From an uncultured Clostridia bacterium (GTDB taxonomy: Bacteria; Bacillota; Clostridia; Christensenellales; UBA1242): a stretch of 64,000 bases of DNA. Positions 3,125 through 62,748 of this stretch are shown piece by piece. The first letter of the stretch is position 1, and each line of letters starts with the position of its first letter. The notes beneath the pieces are model-generated. The model was not told the origin of the DNA. It saw only the letters and a list, made by a program, of their open reading frames with translations, and searched no databases. The stretch lies in the NCBI GenBank assembly GCA_947627545.1, contig CANQWK010000008.1, positions 352 to 64,351 of the forward strand, in the 5' to 3' direction. The translations under genes and the position numbers were made by a program.

Positions 3125-3268
3125 TTATCTATCGCTAACAGTAAGTTGTTTTTTACCTTTGTTTCTACGCCTTTTAAGCACATTTCTGCCAGATAAAGTT
3201 TTCATTCTTGCTCTAAAACCATGCACTTTATTGCGTTGTTTTTTCTTAGGTTGATAAGTTTGTTTCAT
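3125..3268 (-). CDS. rpmH: 50S ribosomal protein L34
   Basis: Not in the ORF track (47 aa). Manual translation gives [47 protein letters not shown], a classic L34 sequence, upstream of rnpA. Confidence 0.95.
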
Positions 3269-3402
3269 AAATAGCTCCTTTTAAAATGTAAGTAATTACT
3301 TATATTAATTAACCATAAAGGCTAAAAGATAGTTTAAATGAACAATAGAAAGCATAAAAATTGAAAGTCATTTAGAACTAAATAATATACAAGTATTTAG
3401 AT

Positions 3403-3431
3403 ATAATAACAAAAAAAAGAATAATTGTCAA
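3403..3431 (-). promoter_or_regulatory. Candidate sigma-70 promoter for rpmH-rnpA
   Basis: On the minus strand: TTGACA (3426-3431), a 17-nt spacer, then TATTAT (3403-3408). Confidence 0.45.
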
Positions 3432-3436
3432 TAAAA

Positions 3437-3478
3437 AAAGCAAATTTTTTAATTTACTTTAAAACGACAAATTTTGCT
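3437..3478 (-). terminator. Candidate terminator closing the 3' UTR that contains the module-A array
   Basis: On the minus strand: stem gcaaaattt/aaatttgc with a large loop, followed by a run of 7 T. Confidence 0.4.
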
Positions 3479-3521
3479 TTTCTAACCTTTTAGCCCTCTA
3501 CTTTGCCTGTCCATATCTTCT

Positions 3522-3645
3522 GCGTCGCAGAATTCGCCCTTTCTCGTTTGCTTTCGCAAACTTCGATTTCTGCTCTTCTGTTCCTTTCCCCCCTTCAAAA
3601 CATTTCCTATGTTTTGTGGGGTCCCCTATTCGTTGTAGAAGATAT
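3522..3645 (-). ncRNA. Unclassified structured scaffold plus 15-nt target-mirroring segment, copy A1
   Basis: Read on the minus strand: atatcttctacaacg, then aataGGGGACCCC, hairpin caaaacat/atgttttg, GGGGGGAAAGGAACAG, CGAAG, hairpin gtttgc-GAAA-gcaaac, CGAGAAAGGG...gcgacgc. It is homologous in layout to 44983-45104. No transcription evidence is available. Confidence 0.4.
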
Positions 3646-3718
3646 TAAACCTTTTACTTTATATCTTATAAAATCTTGTTAACCTTTTAGTCCTCTACTT
3701 TGCCTGTCCATATCTTCT

Positions 3719-3841
3719 GCGTCACAGAATTCGCTCTTTCTCGTTTGCTTTCGCAAACTTCGATTTTTGCTCTTCTGTTCCTTTCCCCCTTCAAAACATT
3801 TCCTATGTTTTGTGGGGTCCCCTATTCGTTGTAGAAGATAT
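3719..3841 (-). ncRNA. Unclassified structured scaffold plus 15-nt target-mirroring segment, copy A2
   Basis: Near-identical tandem copy of 3522-3645, with a few substitutions and a 1-nt C-run difference. Confidence 0.4.
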
Positions 3842-3875
3842 TAAACCTTTTACTTTATATCTTATAAAATCTTTT

Positions 3876-4163
3876 CTAACCTTTTAGCCCTCTACTTTGC
3901 CTGTCCATATCTTCTACAACGATGTCGCAAATTTCACCCAAGGTAGAACAATATTTTAACACGTCCCACGGCTCGTTGGTGTGAAAATGAATTTTTACAG
4001 TTTCGCTATCATCACCCAAACCATCGCCTACTGCTATTAAACAATCTCCCTTAAAATTTTTTAAAAAATATTCTCTAATTTTGCGTTCGCTTAAATTTTT
4101 GCCTTCAATTAAAAGTTGAGTATCATATCTAAATTCAATCATAATTTCTCCTTTTATAGCCAA
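3876..4163 (-). CDS. Small stand-alone protein resembling the central region of FakA/YloV (DAK2-domain fusion) proteins
   Basis: 95 aa. The block ...GDCLIAVGD...VKIHFHTNEPWDVLKYCSTLGEICDIVVEDMDRQ resembles, from memory, the GDSL.VV...VHVHTN.P..VL....G.L..I.I.NM..Q block of YloV/FakA. No DhaL or DegV-like domains are attached. Confidence 0.5.
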   Translation of the reverse strand: MAIKGEIMIEFRYDTQLLIEGKNLSERKIREYFLKNFKGDCLIAVGDGLGDDSETVKIHFHTNEPWDVLKYCSTLGEICDIVVEDMDRQSRGLKG

Positions 4164-4208
4164 ACTTAAAAATTTGGCTGCGTAATTTTAAATAAATTTA
4201 CACTACTT

Positions 4209-4871
4209 CTAGCCCTGATTTGCACGGTTAAATTTTATAATGTAATTATATATCTGCTCAGTTGTGTCTTGAACATTGTTTTGGTCAAAGAAAATTGAAT
4301 GCCCTCCCATGCGAGTAAAAGGAATTAAATTTTTTTCGCGGTCATCAATAAGCAAACTTTCTTCCGCTTTAATTTTCCATTTTTTTAATGCTGCCAAATA
4401 AATTTCTTCATCTGGCTTAACAAAGCCCACATCGCACGAAAACATCATATCTTTAAACCAATCTTTATTTAAAAGTTTAGCAACGGCATCAACCGTGTCC
4501 TTATTCATGTTGGAAAGCACGTAGATGTTAAATCCGGTATCGTGCAATTGTTTAATAAGTTTTAAACTATCTTTTATAAACACAATTTTAGATTTATGGT
4601 TAATTTTTTCATTAATTAAACTAACAATTTCAAGCGGCTCGCCGGTTTCTTCCGCCACCGATTCCGCAAACCTTTCCTTGCTAACAAGGCCTTTTTCGTA
4701 GCCGGTTGCCCTGCCTTTTGTTAGATATTTAAAATAATAATCTCTAAGCCCCATGCCCTTATAACGCTTGCCGAACTTAAACCTCAACCCAAGCGGAAGC
4801 ATACTGTTTATGCTACAATTTTTAATTTCTTTAATAACTCCGCCCAAATCGAAAATAACATTTTTAATCAT
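4209..4871 (-). CDS. HAD-superfamily hydrolase
   Basis: N-terminal DLGGV motif (DxDx[TV] type), a SN motif-II region and a C-terminal DD motif, in a protein of about 220 aa. Confidence 0.7.
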   Translation of the reverse strand: MIKNVIFDLGGVIKEIKNCSINSMLPLGLRFKFGKRYKGMGLRDYYFKYLTKGRATGYEKGLVSKERFAESVAEETGEPLEIVSLINEKINHKSKIVFIKDSLKLIKQLHDTGFNIYVLSNMNKDTVDAVAKLLNKDWFKDMMFSCDVGFVKPDEEIYLAALKKWKIKAEESLLIDDREKNLIPFTRMGGHSIFFDQNNVQDTTEQIYNYIIKFNRANQG

Positions 4872-5231: not shown

Positions 5232-6176
5232 ATGAATATTTTAAATGGTAAAATGGTGGCGGAAGAAATTAAAAATCAGGTTAAATTGCGAGCAGAAAAA
5301 TTAGGCAAACCTGTTTGTTTGGCGTGCATAATTGTTGAGGGTAACCCAGCAAGCGAAATTTATGTAGTGTCTAAACAAAAAGCGTGCGAAACCTACGGCT
5401 TAAAATCTAAAATTATAAGGTTAAAAAACAATGTTAGCCAAGCCGAGTTGGAAAACACAATTATTTCGCTTAATAAGGACAAAAAAATCTCCGCAATTTT
5501 GCTTCAACTTCCACTACCTAAACAACTCAACGAACAGAAAGCCATAAATTTAATAAGTCCGCAAAAGGACGCCGATTGCCTAACTCCACAAAACTTAGGC
5601 AGATTATTTTCCTCACAAAGCAAATTTGCCCCATGCACAGCAAACGGAATTATAAAATTATTAAACCGATACAACATTAAAATTGAAGGCAAACACGCGG
5701 TTGTTGTTGGCAGAAGTTTGCTTGTAGGCAAGCCGATTGCAGCACTGTTAGAGCAACATAATGCCACAGTAACAATCTGCCACAGCAAAACCGAAAATTT
5801 AGAGTATTTCACGCGCCAAGCCGACATTTTAATTGTAGCAATAGGCAAACCAAATTATATAACCGCCAACCACATAAAACAAAACGCAGTTGTTGTAGAT
5901 GTTGGAATAAACCGCATAACCGAAAATAATTTACAAAGCAAAAACGCAACTTTAAACAACTCAAACAACAACTCAAACTACTTAAACAACAACACAAATA
6001 GCAACACAAATAATAACAAAACAAAAATATGCGGAGATGTAAATTTTGAAGAAGTTAAAGAAATTTGTTCATATATAACGCCTGTGCCAGGCGGAGTTGG
6101 ACCATTGACAGTTGCCTGCTTACTAGACAACACTCTAACCTTGGCAGAAACCACAGCCGAGCAAACGAACAAATAA
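5232..6176 (+). CDS. folD: Bifunctional methylene-THF dehydrogenase/methenyl-THF cyclohydrolase
   Basis: VSKQKACE..., LQLPLP, VVGRSLLVGKPIA and PVPGGVGPLTVA motifs. Contains an Asn-rich insertion (NNSNNNSNYLNNNTNSNTNNNKTK). Confidence 0.9.
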   Translation: MNILNGKMVAEEIKNQVKLRAEKLGKPVCLACIIVEGNPASEIYVVSKQKACETYGLKSKIIRLKNNVSQAELENTIISLNKDKKISAILLQLPLPKQLNEQKAINLISPQKDADCLTPQNLGRLFSSQSKFAPCTANGIIKLLNRYNIKIEGKHAVVVGRSLLVGKPIAALLEQHNATVTICHSKTENLEYFTRQADILIVAIGKPNYITANHIKQNAVVVDVGINRITENNLQSKNATLNNSNNNSNYLNNNTNSNTNNNKTKICGDVNFEEVKEICSYITPVPGGVGPLTVACLLDNTLTLAETTAEQTNK

Positions 6177-15982: not shown

Positions 15983-16741
15983 TTATTTTTTATTGGATTT
16001 TTTTGTTGTGGACTTTTTTAAATTTTCAACATTTTTATTTTGAGATTTTGTTGTTTTTATCTCTTTAGTTGCTGCTTTTTTAGTTTCGTTTTTGGCGGTG
16101 CTTTTTGTTTTTGCATTAGTTTTAATAGTATTTTCAGTTTTAGCAATGTTTTTTGTTTTGTTTGATGTTGTGTTTTTGGTTTCTTTATTTGCTACTTTTT
16201 TTGTTTTGTTTGATGTTGTGTTTTTGGTTTCTTTATTTGCTACTTTTTTTGTTTTATTTTTTGTTGCAGATTTAGTTTTATTTTTAATGTCTGTTTTTGT
16301 TTTACTAGCCTGCTCCTGTTCATGCAAACAAGCACAGTCGCCTGCGCAATATTTCTTTTCGTCAAATGGAATTTTATGCTTTATATAATAATCTTTAATT
16401 GCCGCTTTTATTGCCTCTTCGGCAAGCACCGAGCAGTGAAGTTTATATGCAGGCAAGCCGTCAAGAGCCTCAACCACCGCCTGATTTGTTATTTCTAGTG
16501 CCTTATCTAGCGGTTTTCCTTTTATAAGTTCAGTAGCCATGCTGCTGGTTGCAATTGCACTTCCACAACCAAAAGTCATAAACTTAACATCTGTTATAAT
16601 GTTGTTTTTAACTTTTATATACATACGCATTATGTCCCCACATTTTGCGTTGCCAACTTCACCTATTCCATCGGCGTTTTTTATTTCGCCAACATTGCGC
16701 GGATTTTTAAAATGGTCCATAACTTTTTCGCTATATAACAT
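15983..16741 (-). CDS. nifU: NifU/IscU-type Fe-S cluster scaffold with a K/T-rich repetitive C-terminal tail
   Basis: GNAKCGD, FGCGSAIA and HCSVLA cysteine motifs. The tail contains the exact duplicate KTKKVANKETKNTTSN x2. Confidence 0.85.
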   Translation of the reverse strand: MLYSEKVMDHFKNPRNVGEIKNADGIGEVGNAKCGDIMRMYIKVKNNIITDVKFMTFGCGSAIATSSMATELIKGKPLDKALEITNQAVVEALDGLPAYKLHCSVLAEEAIKAAIKDYYIKHKIPFDEKKYCAGDCACLHEQEQASKTKTDIKNKTKSATKNKTKKVANKETKNTTSNKTKKVANKETKNTTSNKTKNIAKTENTIKTNAKTKSTAKNETKKAATKEIKTTKSQNKNVENLKKSTTKKSNKK

Positions 16742-17915: not shown

Positions 17916-17971
17916 TTTTTCTCCTTTTTTATTTAAATTTTGTTATTAGTTATTTTAAACTTTTCTTTTCA

Positions 17972-17997
17972 GTTACTTTTCTTGCAAGAAAAGTAAC
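17972..17997. repeat. Intergenic palindromic element, copy 4
   Basis: cttttCAGTTACTTTTCTTGCAAGAAAAGTAACAAAAG. Confidence 0.9.
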
Positions 17998-18121
17998 AAA
18001 AGAATAATTTAAACTAAAACAAAATAAAAACTTAACAATAACTAAAAAACAAATTTAACTTACAATTATATTTTACCACAATTTTTTAATTTTGTATTGT
18101 TTTTATAAAAAATTTTTTAAT

Positions 18122-20270: not shown

Positions 20271-20315
20271 ATTTTTTCTTTATTATTTTTTGTTTGTGTT
20301 TTACTCTTCTTTTCA

Positions 20316-20341
20316 GTTACTTTTCTTGCAAGAAAAGTAAC
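20316..20341. repeat. Intergenic palindromic element, copy 6
   Basis: Core GTTACTTTTCTTGCAAGAAAAGTAAC. Confidence 0.9.
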
Positions 20342-20387
20342 AAAAGAAAAAGTTAAAAACAAAAATAAAATTATAAAAATACAAAAA

Positions 20388-22418: not shown

Positions 22419-22510
22419 GTTTTTATTATATCACATTTTTGTTTTAATTTTTATTATTTTTGTTGTTTTGTTTATTTTTTATTTTTTTATTTTATTTAAC
22501 TTTTTCTTTT

Positions 22511-22536
22511 GTTACTTTTCTTGCAAGAAAAGTAAC
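22511..22536. repeat. Intergenic palindromic element, copy 8 (reverse orientation)
   Basis: Core GTTACTTTTCTTGCAAGAAAAGTAAC. Confidence 0.9.
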
Positions 22537-22589
22537 AAAAAAGAATAGTAAAAAATTAAAAATAAATGAAAAAAATATATAAAAAACAT

Positions 22590-23711: not shown

Positions 23712-23870
23712 TTCTACTCCTTTAACCCCTGCTGTATTTTTATACCTTAATATATTACCAAATTAACCCACTCTTTGTCAAATATTTTAACCATGTTTAT
23801 TTTATTTTTTTCTTGATTTACTTGTTTACTTTATCTTTCTATTTTTTTATTTTGTTTACTATTCTTTTCA

Positions 23871-23896
23871 GTTACTTTTCTTACAAGAAAAGTAAC
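23871..23896. repeat. Intergenic palindromic element, copy 9
   Basis: GTTACTTTTCTTACAAGAAAAGTAAC (one central mismatch). Confidence 0.85.
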
Positions 23897-24127
23897 AAAA
23901 GAGCAAGTCAATAAAAGCTATAAAAAAGCAACAAGTAAAATAAACAACAAAATATAAATATATTAAATAAATAATAAATAATAAAAACATAAATAGATTT
24001 TAACTGATAAAAAATACTTATCGTTATAATTCAAGCATACAAAAACAAAAAGTGAAATTGAGCAGCAACAACAGAATTATTTATTAATTTTTAATTATTT
24101 TTTGTTATTGATTTTCTTATTATATCG

Positions 24128-24271
24128 TGTGGATATGTGCAAAACTATTAATTAATACAATATCTAGATAAAATAAAAATAGATATATCAATATATTGTA
24201 AAAGTTTTCCACAAAAAATGTAGAAAACTATGTGTAAATATGTGTGTATAACTGAATTTTTATGTGTATAA
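24128..24271. promoter_or_regulatory. DnaA-box cluster in the dnaN-dnaA intergenic region (candidate oriC segment)
   Basis: All boxes match the TTATCCACA consensus at 8/9: TGTGGATAT 24128-24136, TTTTCCACA 24205-24213, and TGTGTATAA at 24243-24251 and 24263-24271. A very AT-rich tract at 24270-24360 follows. Confidence 0.6.
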
Positions 24272-30404: not shown

Positions 30405-30661
30405 AATTGTCCTTTTAATTTTATATAATCCTAAATAGGAAAAATAAAAATAAATTTTAATTTTATACTAATTTTTTATTATGCTACAATTTAACCGCCA
30501 ATAGCTAATATAAAATATCTAATATTATTATATAAATATAGTATATCACAAAAAAAGTTTGTTGTAAATTATTTTTTTATTTTTAATTTTATTTTTTTAC
30601 AAGAATTTTATTTTTTATTTTTATAAAAATTTTTTATTAAATTTTATTACTATTCTTTTCA

Positions 30662-30687
30662 GTTACTTTTCTTGCAAGAAAAGTAAC
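30662..30687. repeat. Intergenic palindromic element, copy 14
   Basis: Core GTTACTTTTCTTGCAAGAAAAGTAAC. Confidence 0.9.
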
Positions 30688-30809
30688 AAAAGAAAAAGTA
30701 AAGCAAAAAAAATAAAATAAAACAATTTAAGAGAACAATTCATGTTAATTAAAATGTTTGACAAATAATTTAAATATGAGATATAATTATATTTAAATAA
30801 GGAGGGCGT

Positions 30810-31708: not shown

Positions 31709-31760
31709 GCTTTTATTTAATTTTATTTTATTATTTTTATTGTTTTAACTATTCTTTTCT

Positions 31761-31786
31761 GTTACTTTTCTTGCAAGAAAAGTAAC
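31761..31786. repeat. Intergenic palindromic element, copy 15
   Basis: Core GTTACTTTTCTTGCAAGAAAAGTAAC. Confidence 0.9.
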
Positions 31787-31847
31787 AAAAGAAAACGTAA
31801 AAAAATAAATAAAAATATAAATAAAACAAATTAAAAAACAAAATATA

Positions 31848-37311: not shown

Positions 37312-37428
37312 ATTTCCACATAGTTATGCACTAGTTATCCACAGGTTTTCCACCGATTGTGGATAACTTTTGTGGAAAATTTTTAAAAAATTGCATTTTT
37401 GACCCTAAAAAGCATATACTTATCCACA
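37312..37428. promoter_or_regulatory. Dense DnaA-box cluster (three perfect and three or four near-perfect boxes)
   Basis: Perfect TTATCCACA at 37335-37343 and 37420-37428, and perfect TGTGGATAA at 37358-37366. Also TGTGGAAAA 37371-37379 (8/9), TTTTCCACC 37346-37354 and ATTTCCACA 37312-37320 (7/9 each). Confidence 0.7.
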
Positions 37429-62103: not shown

Positions 62104-62748
62104 ATGAATAACTGTAATTTTAACAGATTTAACAACAACTGCTGCTCTCTAAATAATTGCAGTAATAACAATTACCGCACTCCAAACAATAACTGCTGTA
62201 ATGCAAACAATTGTTGTAATCCGTGCCTTACAAACGAGATGCCGCCAGTTTATTCTCGTATTATTGTACAAACAGGGGCGGTTGGACCTACTGGACCTAC
62301 CGGACCAACAGGTCCTGCTGGAGATATTGGACCTACCGGACCAACAGGGGCAACAGGTCCTGCTGGGTTTGAAGCAACCGCATTTTTTACTGCAGGCAAT
62401 GCGGTGGGTGTTGAACCTACGCTTTTGCTTGAAAATGCCTATCCAACTAATCAAACGCAAATTTCTTTTGCAGGCGATAACAATGTAAATCTTGAACCTG
62501 GCACTTATCTAATGCGTTTTGGTTCAACCGTTACCAGCACAAACGGAACTCCGCCTACCATATCTATTTTGGTAAATAATACTGTTGAAAGTGGAACAAT
62601 AAGAACAGGCGTTGCGTTTGGCTCGGCAAATTTAACAGGCGATGCATTAATAACAATTCAAGTTCCGTCAAGGTTGTCATTTAATGTAACAACTGCAAAC
62701 GAACTTTCTTATGATGAAAATTTTTTAATAATATCTAAGCTTGGTTAA
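62104..62748 (+). CDS. Collagen-like (GPT-repeat) surface protein, BclA-like, with an Asn/Cys-rich N-terminus
   Basis: GAVGPTGPTGPTGPAGDIGPTGPTGATGPAG triple-helix repeats, followed by a C-terminal beta-rich domain of about 125 aa. The N-terminus reads NNCCSLNNCSNNNYRTPNNNCCNANNCCNPC. Confidence 0.72.
   Translation: MNNCNFNRFNNNCCSLNNCSNNNYRTPNNNCCNANNCCNPCLTNEMPPVYSRIIVQTGAVGPTGPTGPTGPAGDIGPTGPTGATGPAGFEATAFFTAGNAVGVEPTLLLENAYPTNQTQISFAGDNNVNLEPGTYLMRFGSTVTSTNGTPPTISILVNNTVESGTIRTGVAFGSANLTGDALITIQVPSRLSFNVTTANELSYDENFLIISKLG

Follow-up and report, generated by a model that had tools for sequence, protein, structure and literature searches.

What kind of element leaves, behind an intact gene, tandem units that each combine a copy of that gene's own end, an inverted copy of the junction and a folded stretch of DNA? 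This question is raised by an array found 3′ of a small gene in the window, i.e., the whole 64-kb stretch of DNA analysed here, and by a second locus at a tRNA-Arg gene. A sequence-only reading had described the array as two tandem 197-bp modules downstream of a FakA-like gene, fitting no recognised element class. It is proposed here that these modules probably belong, on balance, to a family of miniature, non-autonomous, site-specific insertion elements whose position of insertion would be set by base pairing and not by a target-reading protein.

Anatomy of the elements at the FakA-like gene and tRNA-Arg

The element is a structured unit of ~150-200 nt with no gene of its own. Its sense strand reads, from 5′ to 3′, R, guide, scaffold and resident R. 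R copies the target sequence immediately to the right of the insertion point; it is 39-45 nt long at FakA-like genes, where it runs through the stop codon, and 71 nt long at tRNA-Arg. The guide (12-16 nt) is the reverse complement of 6-7 nt left and 6-9 nt right of the insertion point, marked below by a slash as in the junction X/R. The scaffold, which folds and spans 105-113 nt, presents the UAGGGNCCC motif, hairpin H1, AAGAG and stem P2 around CGAMG-H2-SGAG, and the tail of the family is GACGC or GAGCGA.

The array at locus 1 was delimited by Tandem Repeats Finder at 3477-3915, with a period of 197, 2.2 copies and 95% matches, in agreement with the modules first noticed, and the adjacent small gene was indeed FakA-like according to its match with PF21645. 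On the minus strand the gene reads ...ATCGTTGT/AGAAGATATGG...GGTTAG, and each unit is composed of R (the gene's final 45 nt), a decayed remnant of R, an inverted junction of 16 nt and a 107-108-nt scaffold; a third R, followed by a terminator, closes the array. The features of this locus are the following:

3876..4142, minus strand: target gene 1, an 88-aa FakA-like_M protein ("kinase to dihydroxyacetone kinase"; PF21645 match)
3871..3915, minus strand: R1, contiguous with the gene and made up of its final 36 coding nt, the stop codon and 6 further nt
3842..3870, minus strand: R remnant of unit A, a 29-nt decayed R copy with an internal deletion
3826..3841, minus strand: guide A, ATATCTTCTACAACGA, exact reverse complement of TCGTTGT/AGAAGATAT, spanning the junction
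3719..3825, minus strand: scaffold A, 107 nt
3675..3718, minus strand: R2, the second gene-end copy, with 3 differences from R1 and R3, all in the distal third
3646..3674, minus strand: R remnant of unit B
3630..3645, minus strand: guide B, identical to guide A
3522..3629, minus strand: scaffold B, 108 nt, differing from scaffold A at 4 positions
3477..3521, minus strand: R3, the third copy, equal to R1 in sequence and running on into the downstream flank
3433..3477, minus strand: terminator-like hairpin GCAAAATTTG...AAATTTGC with a T run, read directly from the sequence
3403..3431, minus strand: rpmH promoter-like site, TTGACA-17-TATTAT, 11/12 matches, with TG

The junction X/R lies between 3916 and 3915, and the comparison with the relative L057 indicates that its true position is probably one base rightward, at the V/E codon boundary. 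The protein end encoded around it, ...DIVV/EDMDRQSRGLKG followed by the stop, is conserved across thousands of homologues. The inverted copy had been described as an exact reverse complement of 15 nt; its exactness held and its length was found to be 16 nt, since ATATCTTCTACAACGA (3841-3826) is the exact reverse complement of TCGTTGTAGAAGATAT. When the longest inverted match to the 30-nt junction window was searched for in the downstream 185 nt, this observed value of 16 compared with a maximum of 11 in 5000 shuffles. Similarly, the stretch of about 29 nt after the gene end had its length correctly given and is not a neutral spacer: it is an internally deleted copy of R, in which AAGATAT, AAAGTA and AAAAGGTT are collinear with R. 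Each unit therefore holds, as had been read, a target-flank copy and an inverted junction copy (R1-R3, guides A and B), and the first 9 nt of the latter pair with the start of the next R copy, closing a stem that corresponds to helix 1 of the fold model. In scaffold A, the UAGGGGACCCC motif is followed by hairpin H1, GGGGGAAAGGA, stem P2 around CGAAG-hairpin H2-CGAG and the tail GUGACGC. The end of R3 is the first base of the terminator hairpin (3477-3433) that had been expected after the last flank copy, with the rpmH promoter match directly downstream, and no other minus-strand terminator was listed between the FakA-like stop codon and rpmH by a terminator scan of 3200-4300. Plus-strand ORFs of 59 and 44 aa also occur within the units and were taken as putative repeat artefacts.

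The same design had been announced for tRNA-Arg, and it was recovered at 44.9-45.2 kb, where R spans 71 nt and the inverted junction 12 nt. The features of locus 2 are the following:

44872..44948, minus strand: target gene 2, tRNA-Arg(ACG)
44907..44977, plus strand: R1, 71 nt, antisense of tRNA nt 1-42 plus 29 nt of leader
44978-44982, plus strand: linker GGCAA, directly before the guide
44983..44994, plus strand: guide GGAACCAAAGGT, with the target ACCTTT/GGTTCC at 44901-44912
44995..45104, plus strand: scaffold, 110 nt, with tail GCGAGCGA, homologous to scaffolds A and B
45105..45175, plus strand: R2, continuous with the leader and promoter common to relatives
45276..45304, minus strand: promoter-like site TTTACT-17-TATAAT (promoter scan; homologue in L149)

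R1 and R2 of this locus are identical at 70/71 positions, with a spacing of 198. The junction separates nt 42 from nt 43 of the tRNA, in the 3′ strand of the anticodon stem, and R1 is contiguous with the remainder of the tRNA gene. The guide is the reverse complement of the sequence spanning this junction, and an inverted match of its 12 nt was reached by 1/5000 shuffles. At both loci the left edge of the duplicated R lies within the guide's target. On account of this position and of both shuffling results, the design of guide and R is not due to chance. The homologue of the promoter at 45276..45304 adjoins tRNA-Arg upstream in the relative L149, and in the window this promoter stands ~325 nt upstream of the intact tRNA.

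Regarding replication, DnaA-box clusters at 24.1-24.3 and 37.3-37.4 kb, divergent dnaN/dnaA and the GC-skew minimum are all placed between the two loci. Locus 1 lies on the minus strand, left of this origin region, and locus 2 on the plus strand, right of it and antisense to the tRNA, so that the sense strand of the element is the lagging-strand template at both loci, an assignment that assumes an origin between 24 and 40 kb. Only two loci underlie this argument, and at locus 1 gene orientation is a confounder.

Scaffold conservation and guide-target complementarity among relatives

A covariance model derived from locus 1 alone found locus 2 (20 bits, E=0.003), its sole other match below E=0.05 in the 64 kb, and a two-locus model recovered both the complete element of L057 (30 bits, E=8e-6) and, in L146, the 5′ half of one. 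The scaffolds of both loci are homologous and form a conserved folded nucleic acid. Among five sequences of four scaffold types, 95.6% of cells were paired and 21/37 base pairs were changed on both sides, these counts being biased towards structure as the alignments were fitted to the covariance model. When partners were slid by 1-3 columns, pairing was 34-52% with at most 5 double-changed pairs, and the observed values were reached by 0/500 shuffles. Moreover, the fold z-scores were −7.8 (locus 1) and −4.4 (locus 2), and scaffold G+C was 41-44% versus ~30% in the genome. The internal-loop sequences CGAAG, CGAG and AAGAG are common to elements with different targets, and no second target-matching segment was detected in the scaffold by k-mer comparison with the target. 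The scaffold 5′ domains are only 51-63% identical among elements serving one target in three genomes.

Additional copies were sought beyond these loci. Covariance models run over ~0.62 Mb of related loci gave no further convincing copy. A weak, possibly decayed relative (21.5 bits) was noted in L064, with P2/H2-like pairing and a degenerate guide, TACCTTCGAC, directly after the stop codon. The scaffold pattern GAACAG..CGAAGTTT..AAACGAG had one match in viral contigs, located inside an ORF and attributed to chance, and 43 matches in 185,579 representative genomes (from which the species of the window is evidently absent), none with hairpin or context. In viral contigs, the tRNA-Arg design pattern gave 0 matches and the FakA-like design pattern 93, all by chance. 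No similar DNA was found by BLAST in 72,556 plasmids with three scaffold types or in 50,697 phages with one. About five copies are informative, representing four types of scaffold at two targets. They were all found in a single narrow clade of Clostridia-like bacteria, uncultured and low in G+C, and no autonomous, enzyme-revealing relative is among them.

Empty sites, which the sequence-only reading had proposed to look for in close relatives, were seen at both targets. The FakA-like gene is empty in L049, L051, L052-L056, L139-L142 and 80 metagenome loci, the latter with an 83-aa form of the gene and with neither a second EDMDRQ copy nor an inverted junction. The full element is present in L057/L058, only the guide and H1 in L146, and a ~55-nt remnant plus a second R in L048/L050; empty, occupied, shortened and decayed sites all share the same codon boundary. 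Since L048-L051 encode an identical protein, P0005, presence and absence differ within one allele group. Likewise, the tRNA-Arg of L149, L150 and L151 carries no element. This polymorphism means that the element is mobile or removable.

The guide was also observed to follow the synonymous third-position variants of its target in its own genome. The window target GTTGTA/GAAGATAT faces the guide ATATCTTCTACAAC, the L057 target GTAGTC/GAAGATATG the guide CATATCTTCGACTAC, and the L146 target GTTGTT/GAAGATATG the guide CATATCTTCAACAACG, with a perfect match each time. Counting locus 2, complementarity is shown for two targets in one genome and for three variants of one target in three genomes. The R copies, in turn, have a coding history: R1 and R2 differ mainly at synonymous sites both in L057 (5 synonymous changes and 1 non-synonymous) and in L048 (6 nt in 4 codons, all synonymous), with all differences at R position 18 or beyond. 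The occupied FakA-like sites could nevertheless derive from one old insertion, followed by precise losses via recombination between R copies; the guide-target matches would then reflect selection for a cis hairpin and not target choice.

Known families and rival explanations

Nothing in the 64 kb was recognised as a transposase, reverse transcriptase or recombinase; its 57 ORFs of at least 110 aa read as housekeeping or cell-envelope genes. Ten ORFs that could not be placed by eye showed no mobile-element Pfam domain when Pfam was run on them, and no ORF is in or adjoins any element copy; no element-encoded protein is thus recognised in the window. At the gathering thresholds of Rfam 15, tRNA alone was matched, and at E<=10 the best match came from a mammalian lncRNA model, over 29 unstructured nt (E=4.6), and was considered noise. 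The design was not found described in the literature on RNA-guided recombinases, DNA-guided single-strand transposition and bacterial target-primed retroelements. The element fails on the defining features of every family compared, namely IS110, IS200/IS605, integrase islands, introns, retrons, DGRs and integron cassettes, which bears out the first impression that it belongs to no recognised class.

The bridge RNA (seekRNA) of IS110/IS1111 elements resembles the element in being an element-encoded, folded ncRNA of 100-200 nt whose sequence can pair with the target to the left and right of the insertion point, with specificity reprogrammable in principle and orientation-specific insertion into conserved sequences. 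The bridge RNA, however, has two internal loops, one target-binding and one donor-binding, with two guide segments each for the two DNA strands (PMC13604230). The element presents instead a single contiguous guide of 12-16 nt and internal-loop sequences that are conserved between different targets, with no DEDD (RuvC-like) plus Tnp-domain recombinase gene (DEDD/Ser) next to its ncRNA. In addition, IS110 has a 2-nt core and no long direct repeats, in contrast to the 39-45-nt and 71-nt repeats found here.

IS200/IS605 elements and their MITE-like and PATE-type derivatives share with the element the absence of terminal inverted repeats, the hairpins near both ends and a short guide beside a hairpin that picks cleavage sites by base pairing. 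They act on the template of the lagging strand, and their small derivatives without a protein gene are mobilised in trans; the corresponding orientation was observed here at both loci, which are only two. The scaffold also abuts flank sequence, as in TnpB omega RNA. Unlike the element, IS200/IS605 members have a 4-nt guide and a family-constant target/TAM (4-5 nt), whereas here one genome has both GTTGTA and ACCTTT as left flanks and L057 has GTAGTC; they also produce no flank duplication, and the Rfam IS605-orfB and HEARO models had no match at gathering thresholds or at E<=10. A TnpB-type reading, with scaffold then guide and a constant TAM, was discarded for the same difference in left flanks, and a homing-nuclease reading because the target X/R is intact in occupied alleles.

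Group I and group II introns likewise possess an internal guide (EBS or internal guide sequence) that pairs across the insertion point, and group II intron retrotransposition prefers the lagging-strand template. The scaffold of ~110 nt, however, has no intron core and no Rfam intron match, and introns insert cleanly without exon copying, whereas the element is flanked by copies of downstream sequence and leaves the gene intact, with no splicing needed. In the case of integron attC and CTX sites, the site exists only in the folded single strand, as it may for the element. In both, the terminal helix is completed by 6-7 nt of the neighbour, and small units form arrays with a strand bias relative to replication. 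On the other hand, attC and dif-like sites have conserved cores read by IntI or Xer, whereas the paired sequences here are target-specific; the junctions GTTGTAG and CCTTTGG do not fit the attC R''/R' core (RYYYAAC/GTTRRRY), there is no intI, the units have no cassette gene, and the scaffold is branched rather than one long imperfect hairpin.

The rival that survives best, although unlikely, is that integrase-type elements (phages, ICEs or islands) gave rise to these units, as scars or in miniature form, acted on in trans by a host or helper tyrosine or serine recombinase. The direct repeats would then be attL and attR derived from a replacement gene end, and the inverted segment a core-type binding site or incidental. 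As in phage 21 and e14 (icd) and in tRNA islands, the inserted substitute gene end differs from the resident one at synonymous sites: the direct repeats are the gene end, up to the stop codon plus 0-5 nt, in four genomes, and the differences between R1 and R2 in L057 and L048 are almost only synonymous. One target is a tRNA gene cut beside the anticodon stem-loop, and tandem accretion at a regenerated site is generally known for integrases. Against this, phage 21, e14 and tRNA islands are kilobases long with their own integrase, while these units have 160-200 nt and no tyrosine or serine integrase is present in any copy or in the window; moreover, the tRNA duplicate comprises the 5′ half and leader, not the 3′ part usually restored by tRNA-targeting integrases. 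The integrase explanation gives no role to a perfect inverted copy of 12-16 nt centred on the repeat edge 30-65 nt away, and we know of no such phage or island with an inverted junction copy. It also leaves unaccounted for how this copy tracks synonymous variants and why the scaffold is conserved by compensatory pair changes rather than by sequence, and it would require three independent deletions to have left the same 105-113 nt.

Slightly less probable still is a cis-acting structured RNA of the 3′ UTR or leader, involved in stability, termination or processing, which would not be mobile itself and would have been duplicated by ordinary recombination, the inverted segment and the gene end forming a regulatory hairpin. 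The array of locus 1 does lie between the stop codon and the only terminator, and would thereby be co-transcribed with the gene; its fold is dominated by a predicted 20-bp helix between gene end and guide; H2 with its T run resembles a terminator on the opposite strand; and selection keeping the hairpin would also yield guide-target matches in three genomes. Nonetheless, the module of locus 2 is antisense to the tRNA, so that no single RNA-level role suits both loci, and most close relatives, among them genomes with an identical protein, lack the module. Nor does this reading account for the two tandem copies, or for the presence of R to the left and right of the module, with R's left edge falling within the hairpin.

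A yet more doubtful possibility is the ncRNA of a known reverse transcriptase (RT) system whose RT is encoded elsewhere, either a retron-like msr/msd (a1/a2) or a DGR-like pair with the flank copies as template repeats. The stretch guide-scaffold-R9, closed by the terminal helix P0 and with one short and one long hairpin, is retron-like, and a copy of a gene 3′ end beside a structured spacer recalls, from general knowledge, the VR/TR and spacer RNA of DGRs. Yet an RT gene directly after the RNA is the rule in retrons (downstream of msr-msd) and in DGRs, whereas rpmH or a glycosyltransferase gene lies 3′ of the element RNAs at the two loci and no RT was recognised in the 64 kb. In addition, the closing helix consists of target sequence and extends into 6-7 nt complementary to the flank, which to our knowledge no retron does. 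The DGR reading was rejected on the differences between R1 and R2, which are not limited to the adenines of one copy (G/A, C/T, A/G and T/C occur in L057), and the FakA-like C-terminus is invariant among homologues rather than hypervariable.

Finally, an assembly artefact or simple slippage duplication, conceivable for a short-read metagenome with a repeat period near the read length, is very unlikely, since the ENA assemblies L001 and L002, which are independent, both contain the array base for base (a third breaks within unit B), its units differ at 7 positions, a second locus has another R and guide, and homologues exist in other samples and databases. That this is no slippage repeat, as the sequence-only reading held, also follows from the homologous scaffolds with compensatory changes and from relatives with empty sites or with sites occupied or decayed at the same codon boundary, the guide being fitted to the local sequence.

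Putative mode of insertion and implications

As base-pairing-directed insertion elements, these units would keep the host gene intact through duplication or replacement of its end: the intact X/R junction and the full gene end always remain, so the host gene is not inactivated, and the target is regenerated, which makes a tandem array possible. The element may move as a single-stranded copy of sense polarity, whose guide would anneal to the target strand while this is exposed as lagging-strand template. An enzyme acting in trans would then cut or transfer strands at the position facing the point where the guide's two halves meet, and the insertion event would be resolved via homology within R. 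The synonymous differences between R1 and R2 are hard to reconcile with de novo target-site duplication alone, unless alleles were replaced later. A pure cargo model, for its part, does not readily account for the R remnant or for the near-identity of the two repeats at locus 2 (70/71, leader included).

As for the chemistry of this step, an RNA-templated route resembling a prime-editing guide RNA (pegRNA) is preferred, if only tentatively. The RNA would be 5′-guide-scaffold-R(first 9 nt)-3′, its guide would pair with one DNA strand, a nick would be made in the other strand at X/R, the nicked 3′ end would pair with the 3′ R segment, which in the free RNA would lie on the guide (helix P0), and a reverse transcriptase would copy the whole RNA. 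The pegRNA has the same order of 5′ spacer, scaffold, template and 3′ primer-binding site, with a 3′ segment complementary to the 5′ part of the spacer. As in pegRNA editing and in the target-primed reverse transcription (TPRT) of R2/LINE elements, a nick opposite the guide would place the new DNA, and the downstream target is duplicated, as with staggered second-strand cleavage. The resemblance would be one of topology only; the pegRNA is artificial, with no natural bacterial counterpart known to us, and neither a nickase nor a reverse transcriptase was identified in the 64-kb window. Furthermore, no promoter is predicted on the locus 2 sense strand, and that strand is preceded by a bidirectional terminator, which would be awkward for an RNA intermediate made from that copy. 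Nearly as likely, and equally to be taken with reserve, would be a single-stranded DNA circle moved by an HUH or tyrosine enzyme, like IS200/IS605 or folded attC/CTX sites, with a long programmable guide.

Both routes could be accommodated, as a speculative proposal, in a natural protein-less "self-writing guide", a nucleic acid of ~130 nt bearing its own address and its own primer-binding or strand-transfer segment and copied into the chromosome by enzymes in trans. The address would be the contiguous 12-16-nt guide spanning the insertion point, and the other segment the first 6-9 nt of the flank, paired with the guide in the free molecule; the route would be either target-primed reverse transcription, as a natural analogue of prime editing, or DNA-guided single-strand transposition. 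Retargeting by a swap of the guide and R module is suggested by the observations that one scaffold family serves two unrelated targets in one genome and that 5′ domains of 51-63% identity serve one target in three genomes. A new target would need a new guide and, under the cargo reading, a new R too.

These findings suggest a mobile element not described before, one that would recognise its target through base pairing. Should the insertion point indeed be dictated by the guide, no smaller addressable mobile element would be known. The element would also differ in its logic from CRISPR-associated transposons, bridge RNAs and group II introns, using one contiguous guide, with the donor end hard-wired in the same molecule and the host gene still working. 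Even as a MITE of a known family, its long programmable guide and gene-preserving flank copy would be new features. The trans-acting enzyme, once identified, could yield a compact programmable DNA insertion system. Moreover, the element would provide a testable case of nucleic-acid-guided target choice at replication forks, and would show how protein-less parasites can live within essential genes such as tRNA-Arg.

Anatomy of the two loci

The two 197-bp modules that a sequence-only reading had placed 3′ of a FakA-like gene (locus 1, 3.4–4.0 kb) were recovered by a tandem-repeat search (period 197, 2.2 copies, 95% matches, with 7 positions differing between the units) and were present as an identical array in two independent assemblies. 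Past the two units the gene end occurs a third time. The same design was found, as that reading had also claimed, at the tRNA-Arg(ACG) gene (locus 2, 44.9–45.2 kb), where it runs along the plus strand, antisense to the tRNA. The main features are listed below, R being a copy of the target flank to the right of the junction (X|R).

3876–4142, minus strand: FakA-like_M family gene, 88 aa, gene end ...GACATCGTTGT|AGAAGATATGG...GGTTAG
44907–44977, plus strand: locus 2 R1, complement of tRNA nt 1–42 plus 29 nt of leader
110 nt, plus strand: locus 2 scaffold
45105–45175, plus strand: locus 2 R2, 70/71 identical to R1

The R of locus 1 comprises the final 36 coding nt, the stop codon and 6 nt. Each unit carries an inverted junction copy, the guide, which was first read as 15 nt and is a 16-mer, ATATCTTCTACAACGA, perfectly reverse complementary to TCGTTGT|AGAAGATAT; the adjoining scaffold is 107–108 nt long and G+C-richer. 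The supposed spacer of about 29 nt did have that length, and proved to be a decayed and internally deleted copy of R (R*) rather than a mere spacer. The third R leads into the sole terminator-like hairpin that the minus strand has between the stop codon and rpmH, located, as anticipated, before the rpmH promoter. On the plus strand, opposite to the element sense, hairpin H2 and a T-rich run score as an intrinsic terminator (3546–3561 and 3743–3758).

Locus 2 is ordered X|R1, GGCAA, guide, scaffold and R2, and its guide, GGAACCAAAGGT, is the reverse complement of the junction-spanning ACCTTT|GGTTCC. According to a shuffle test, the inverted match was not expected by chance at either locus. A 23-nt tandem repeat (AAAAATTGAAAAAACAAAGGTAA, 44746–44816, 3.1 copies, 93%) lies directly 3′ of the stop codon of a 684-aa membrane protein, ahead of the tRNA-Arg terminator, and the Logan assemblies of this species break there. 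The tRNA-Arg gene and its promoter (44849–45304) are inverted relative to two related genomes, at L149 (12030–12400) and L151 (5890–6112), where the tRNA and the 683/684-aa gene upstream of it point the same way.

Guide, scaffold and distribution among relatives

The inverted segment behaves as an address, to judge by how it tracks its target. Among three genomes the target differed by synonymous third-position changes (GTTGTA|GAAG, GTAGTC|GAAG and GTTGTT|GAAG), and in all three the segment matched its own genome's version perfectly over 15–16 nt. It always spans 6–7 nt left and 6–9 nt right of the junction, always at the 5′ edge of the scaffold, and the left edge of the duplicated R coincides with its internal boundary. 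Address and scaffold look modular, because one scaffold family serves two unrelated targets in the same genome (5′ domains 60% identical between loci 1 and 2) and the 5′ domains found at one target in three genomes are only 51–63% identical to each other.

Comparative evidence argues for a single conserved fold of the scaffold. A motif common to the three scaffold copies of the window had zero expected occurrences. A covariance model built from the locus 1 units alone gave locus 2 as its only other match in the window with E<0.05 (E=0.003), and a model from both loci recovered homologues from two further metagenomes, one of full length lying 3′ of the same gene (L057, 30 bits) and one represented by its 5′ half (L146). 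Among the five scaffold sequences, standard pairs occupied 95.6% of base-pair cells and 21 of the 37 pairs had changed on both sides, a count flattered by the fitting of the alignment to the model, against 34–52% paired and at most 5 pairs changed on both sides when the partners were slid by 1–3 columns. The hairpins could also be read straight from the raw sequences. The predicted parts are:

Helix P0: closes the fold by pairing the 5′ part of the guide with the first 6–9 nt of the R copy 3′ of the scaffold
After P0: UAGGGNCCC motif, hairpin H1, AAGAG, stem P2, tail GACGC/GAGCGA
Stem P2: encloses CGAMG, hairpin H2 and SGAG

The sense strand is weakly favoured as the folded one, because two G-U pairs (locus 2 and L057) would turn into C-A mismatches if the opposite strand were the one to fold. 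Nothing resembling the scaffold was found in Rfam, nor any similar DNA in plasmid and phage collections.

The FakA-like C-terminus, DIVV|EDMDRQSRGLKG*, is nearly invariant among thousands of homologues, and the insertion target is therefore a conserved sequence. Empty sites, sought among relatives, were found at both genes. The FakA-like stop codon is followed by a terminator or the next gene in L049, L051, L052–L056 and L139–L142, and all 80 FakA-like loci of a more distant 83-aa clade are empty. Similarly, in L149, L150 and L151 the promoter lies directly upstream of the tRNA, without the element, and its homologue in the window is located beyond R2. At this same codon boundary the element is complete in L057 and L058. 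L146 retains the guide and H1 and is truncated after that, and L048 and L050 keep a remnant of ~55 nt and a second R; L049 and L051, which encode the identical protein, are empty. The copies found are few and confined to one narrow clade, and a single ancient insertion might be the source of all the occupied FakA-like sites. Moreover, 3′ of an 83-aa FakA-like gene, L064 (256–481) holds a degenerate inverted junction (TACCTTCGAC) without a second R copy, and a G+C-rich region ~75 nt past it scores 21.5 bits against the 3′ domain of that model; this may be an older, decayed relative. In the species of P0001, a protein 93% identical to that of the window (L147 587–853, L148 747–798), an unrelated G+C-rich sequence without the inverted junction (CCCCTCCCGTGTCCCACC...GAGCGAGCCACTGCGAGTCGAG) follows the stop codon.

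In four genomes, R extends as far as the stop codon plus 0–6 nt. Between the R1 and R2 of L057 there are 5 synonymous changes and 1 non-synonymous change, and between those of L048 there are 6 nt of difference in four codons, all synonymous; every difference falls within the distal part of R. Since these differences are almost exclusively synonymous, both copies have served as coding sequence during most of the time since they separated. The pattern is compatible with an element that supplies a replacement for the gene end, in the manner of phage 21 at icd, and likewise with an insertion that homology within R resolved, leaving only the distal R1 derived from the donor. In the window the R copies are nearly identical, at locus 2 even over the 29 nt of leader, which, together with the relic R* in the units, fits a duplication made, or homogenised, in place.

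The surrounding origin region

The window is the replication-origin region (G+C roughly 30%) of a bacterium known solely from metagenomes, and its proteins have their nearest named relatives in 'Clostridia bacterium' MAGs. It contains dnaA, dnaN, rpmH-rnpA-yidD-yidC, mnmG/mnmE and parAB, as well as DnaA boxes in two clusters (24128–24271 and 37335–37428, the second with three perfect TTATCCACA) and four putative parS sites, copies of TGTTCCACGTGGAACA spaced 100–190 nt apart upstream of parB/soj (39388–39820, repeat family D18). The divergence of dnaN (minus) and dnaA (plus) is unusual, and the GC-skew minimum is broad (24–40 kb). Another repeat, intergenic and palindromic (GTTACTTTTCTTGCAAGAAAAGTAAC) with T-rich and A-rich runs at its sides, occurs in at least 11 copies in 17.9–31.8 kb (families D4 and D7; for example 17953–18005, 20297–20349, 22492–22544, 23852–23904, 30643–30695 and 31742–31794), beside a variant with stem GCTACTTTTTTCGCAAAAAAAGTAGC; these palindromes look like bidirectional terminators spread as a REP-like family. 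FolD (5232–6176) contains a low-complexity insert rich in Asn, a NifU-like protein (15983–16741) has a long Lys/Thr-rich tail coded by 48-nt repeats (16149–16266), and the ORF at 62104–62748 encodes collagen-like GPT repeats.

Relation to known systems and possible mechanism

The element can be likened to guide-bearing mobile elements, namely the IS110 bridge RNA, the EBS/IBS pairing of group II introns and the guide/cleavage-site pairing of IS200/IS605, and integrase elements likewise preserve the host gene. Judged by defining features, it is none of these: it lacks the two-loop bridge RNA and DEDD recombinase of IS110, the constant flanking tetranucleotide and omega RNA of IS200/IS605, an intron core and an integrase. 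It also differs from retrons by having no reverse transcriptase 3′ of the element RNA, from diversity-generating retroelements by R differences that are not adenine-specific, and from integron cassettes by lacking an attC core. The design was not found described in the literature on RNA-guided recombinases, DNA-guided single-strand transposition and bacterial target-primed retroelements. The 64-kb window showed no recognisable transposase, recombinase, nuclease or reverse transcriptase, and the enzyme must therefore act in trans.

At both loci the sense strand, bearing the target sequence that pairs with the guide, is the lagging-strand template, an orientation seen at n=2 loci only, with origin signals between them and locus 2 antisense to its gene. 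Lagging-strand bias is known for IS200/IS605 transposition and group II intron retrotransposition. The two loci point to pairing of the guide with single-stranded DNA at the replication fork.

From the anatomy, fold, complementarity and polymorphism, which are what was observed, we infer every mechanistic step. A single-stranded sense copy would be anchored to the target via the guide, with cutting or strand transfer opposite its internal boundary. Prime-editing-like RNA-templated insertion is proposed tentatively, and only slightly less likely is a DNA-guided circle of single-stranded DNA that an HUH or tyrosine enzyme would move. In the RNA reading, the order of 5′ guide, scaffold and 3′ flank segment, with flank segment and guide paired as long as the molecule is free, reproduces the topology of prime-editing guide RNAs. 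When the target is bound, the two P0 strands could swap partners with both DNA strands, and the nicked strand, its 3′ end now on the RNA, would prime the copying of the entire RNA. Such DNA-primed copying of the RNA would account for the orientation, the precision of the right-hand junction and the R duplication, would regenerate the target and so produce a tandem array, and would explain R*, provided that the RNA had a 5′ extension.

Assignment to a class of guide-directed non-autonomous insertion elements is somewhat favoured. The feature itself is real, non-random and conserved, and very probably represents an element that is, or once was, mobile, with a design that we could place in no known family.
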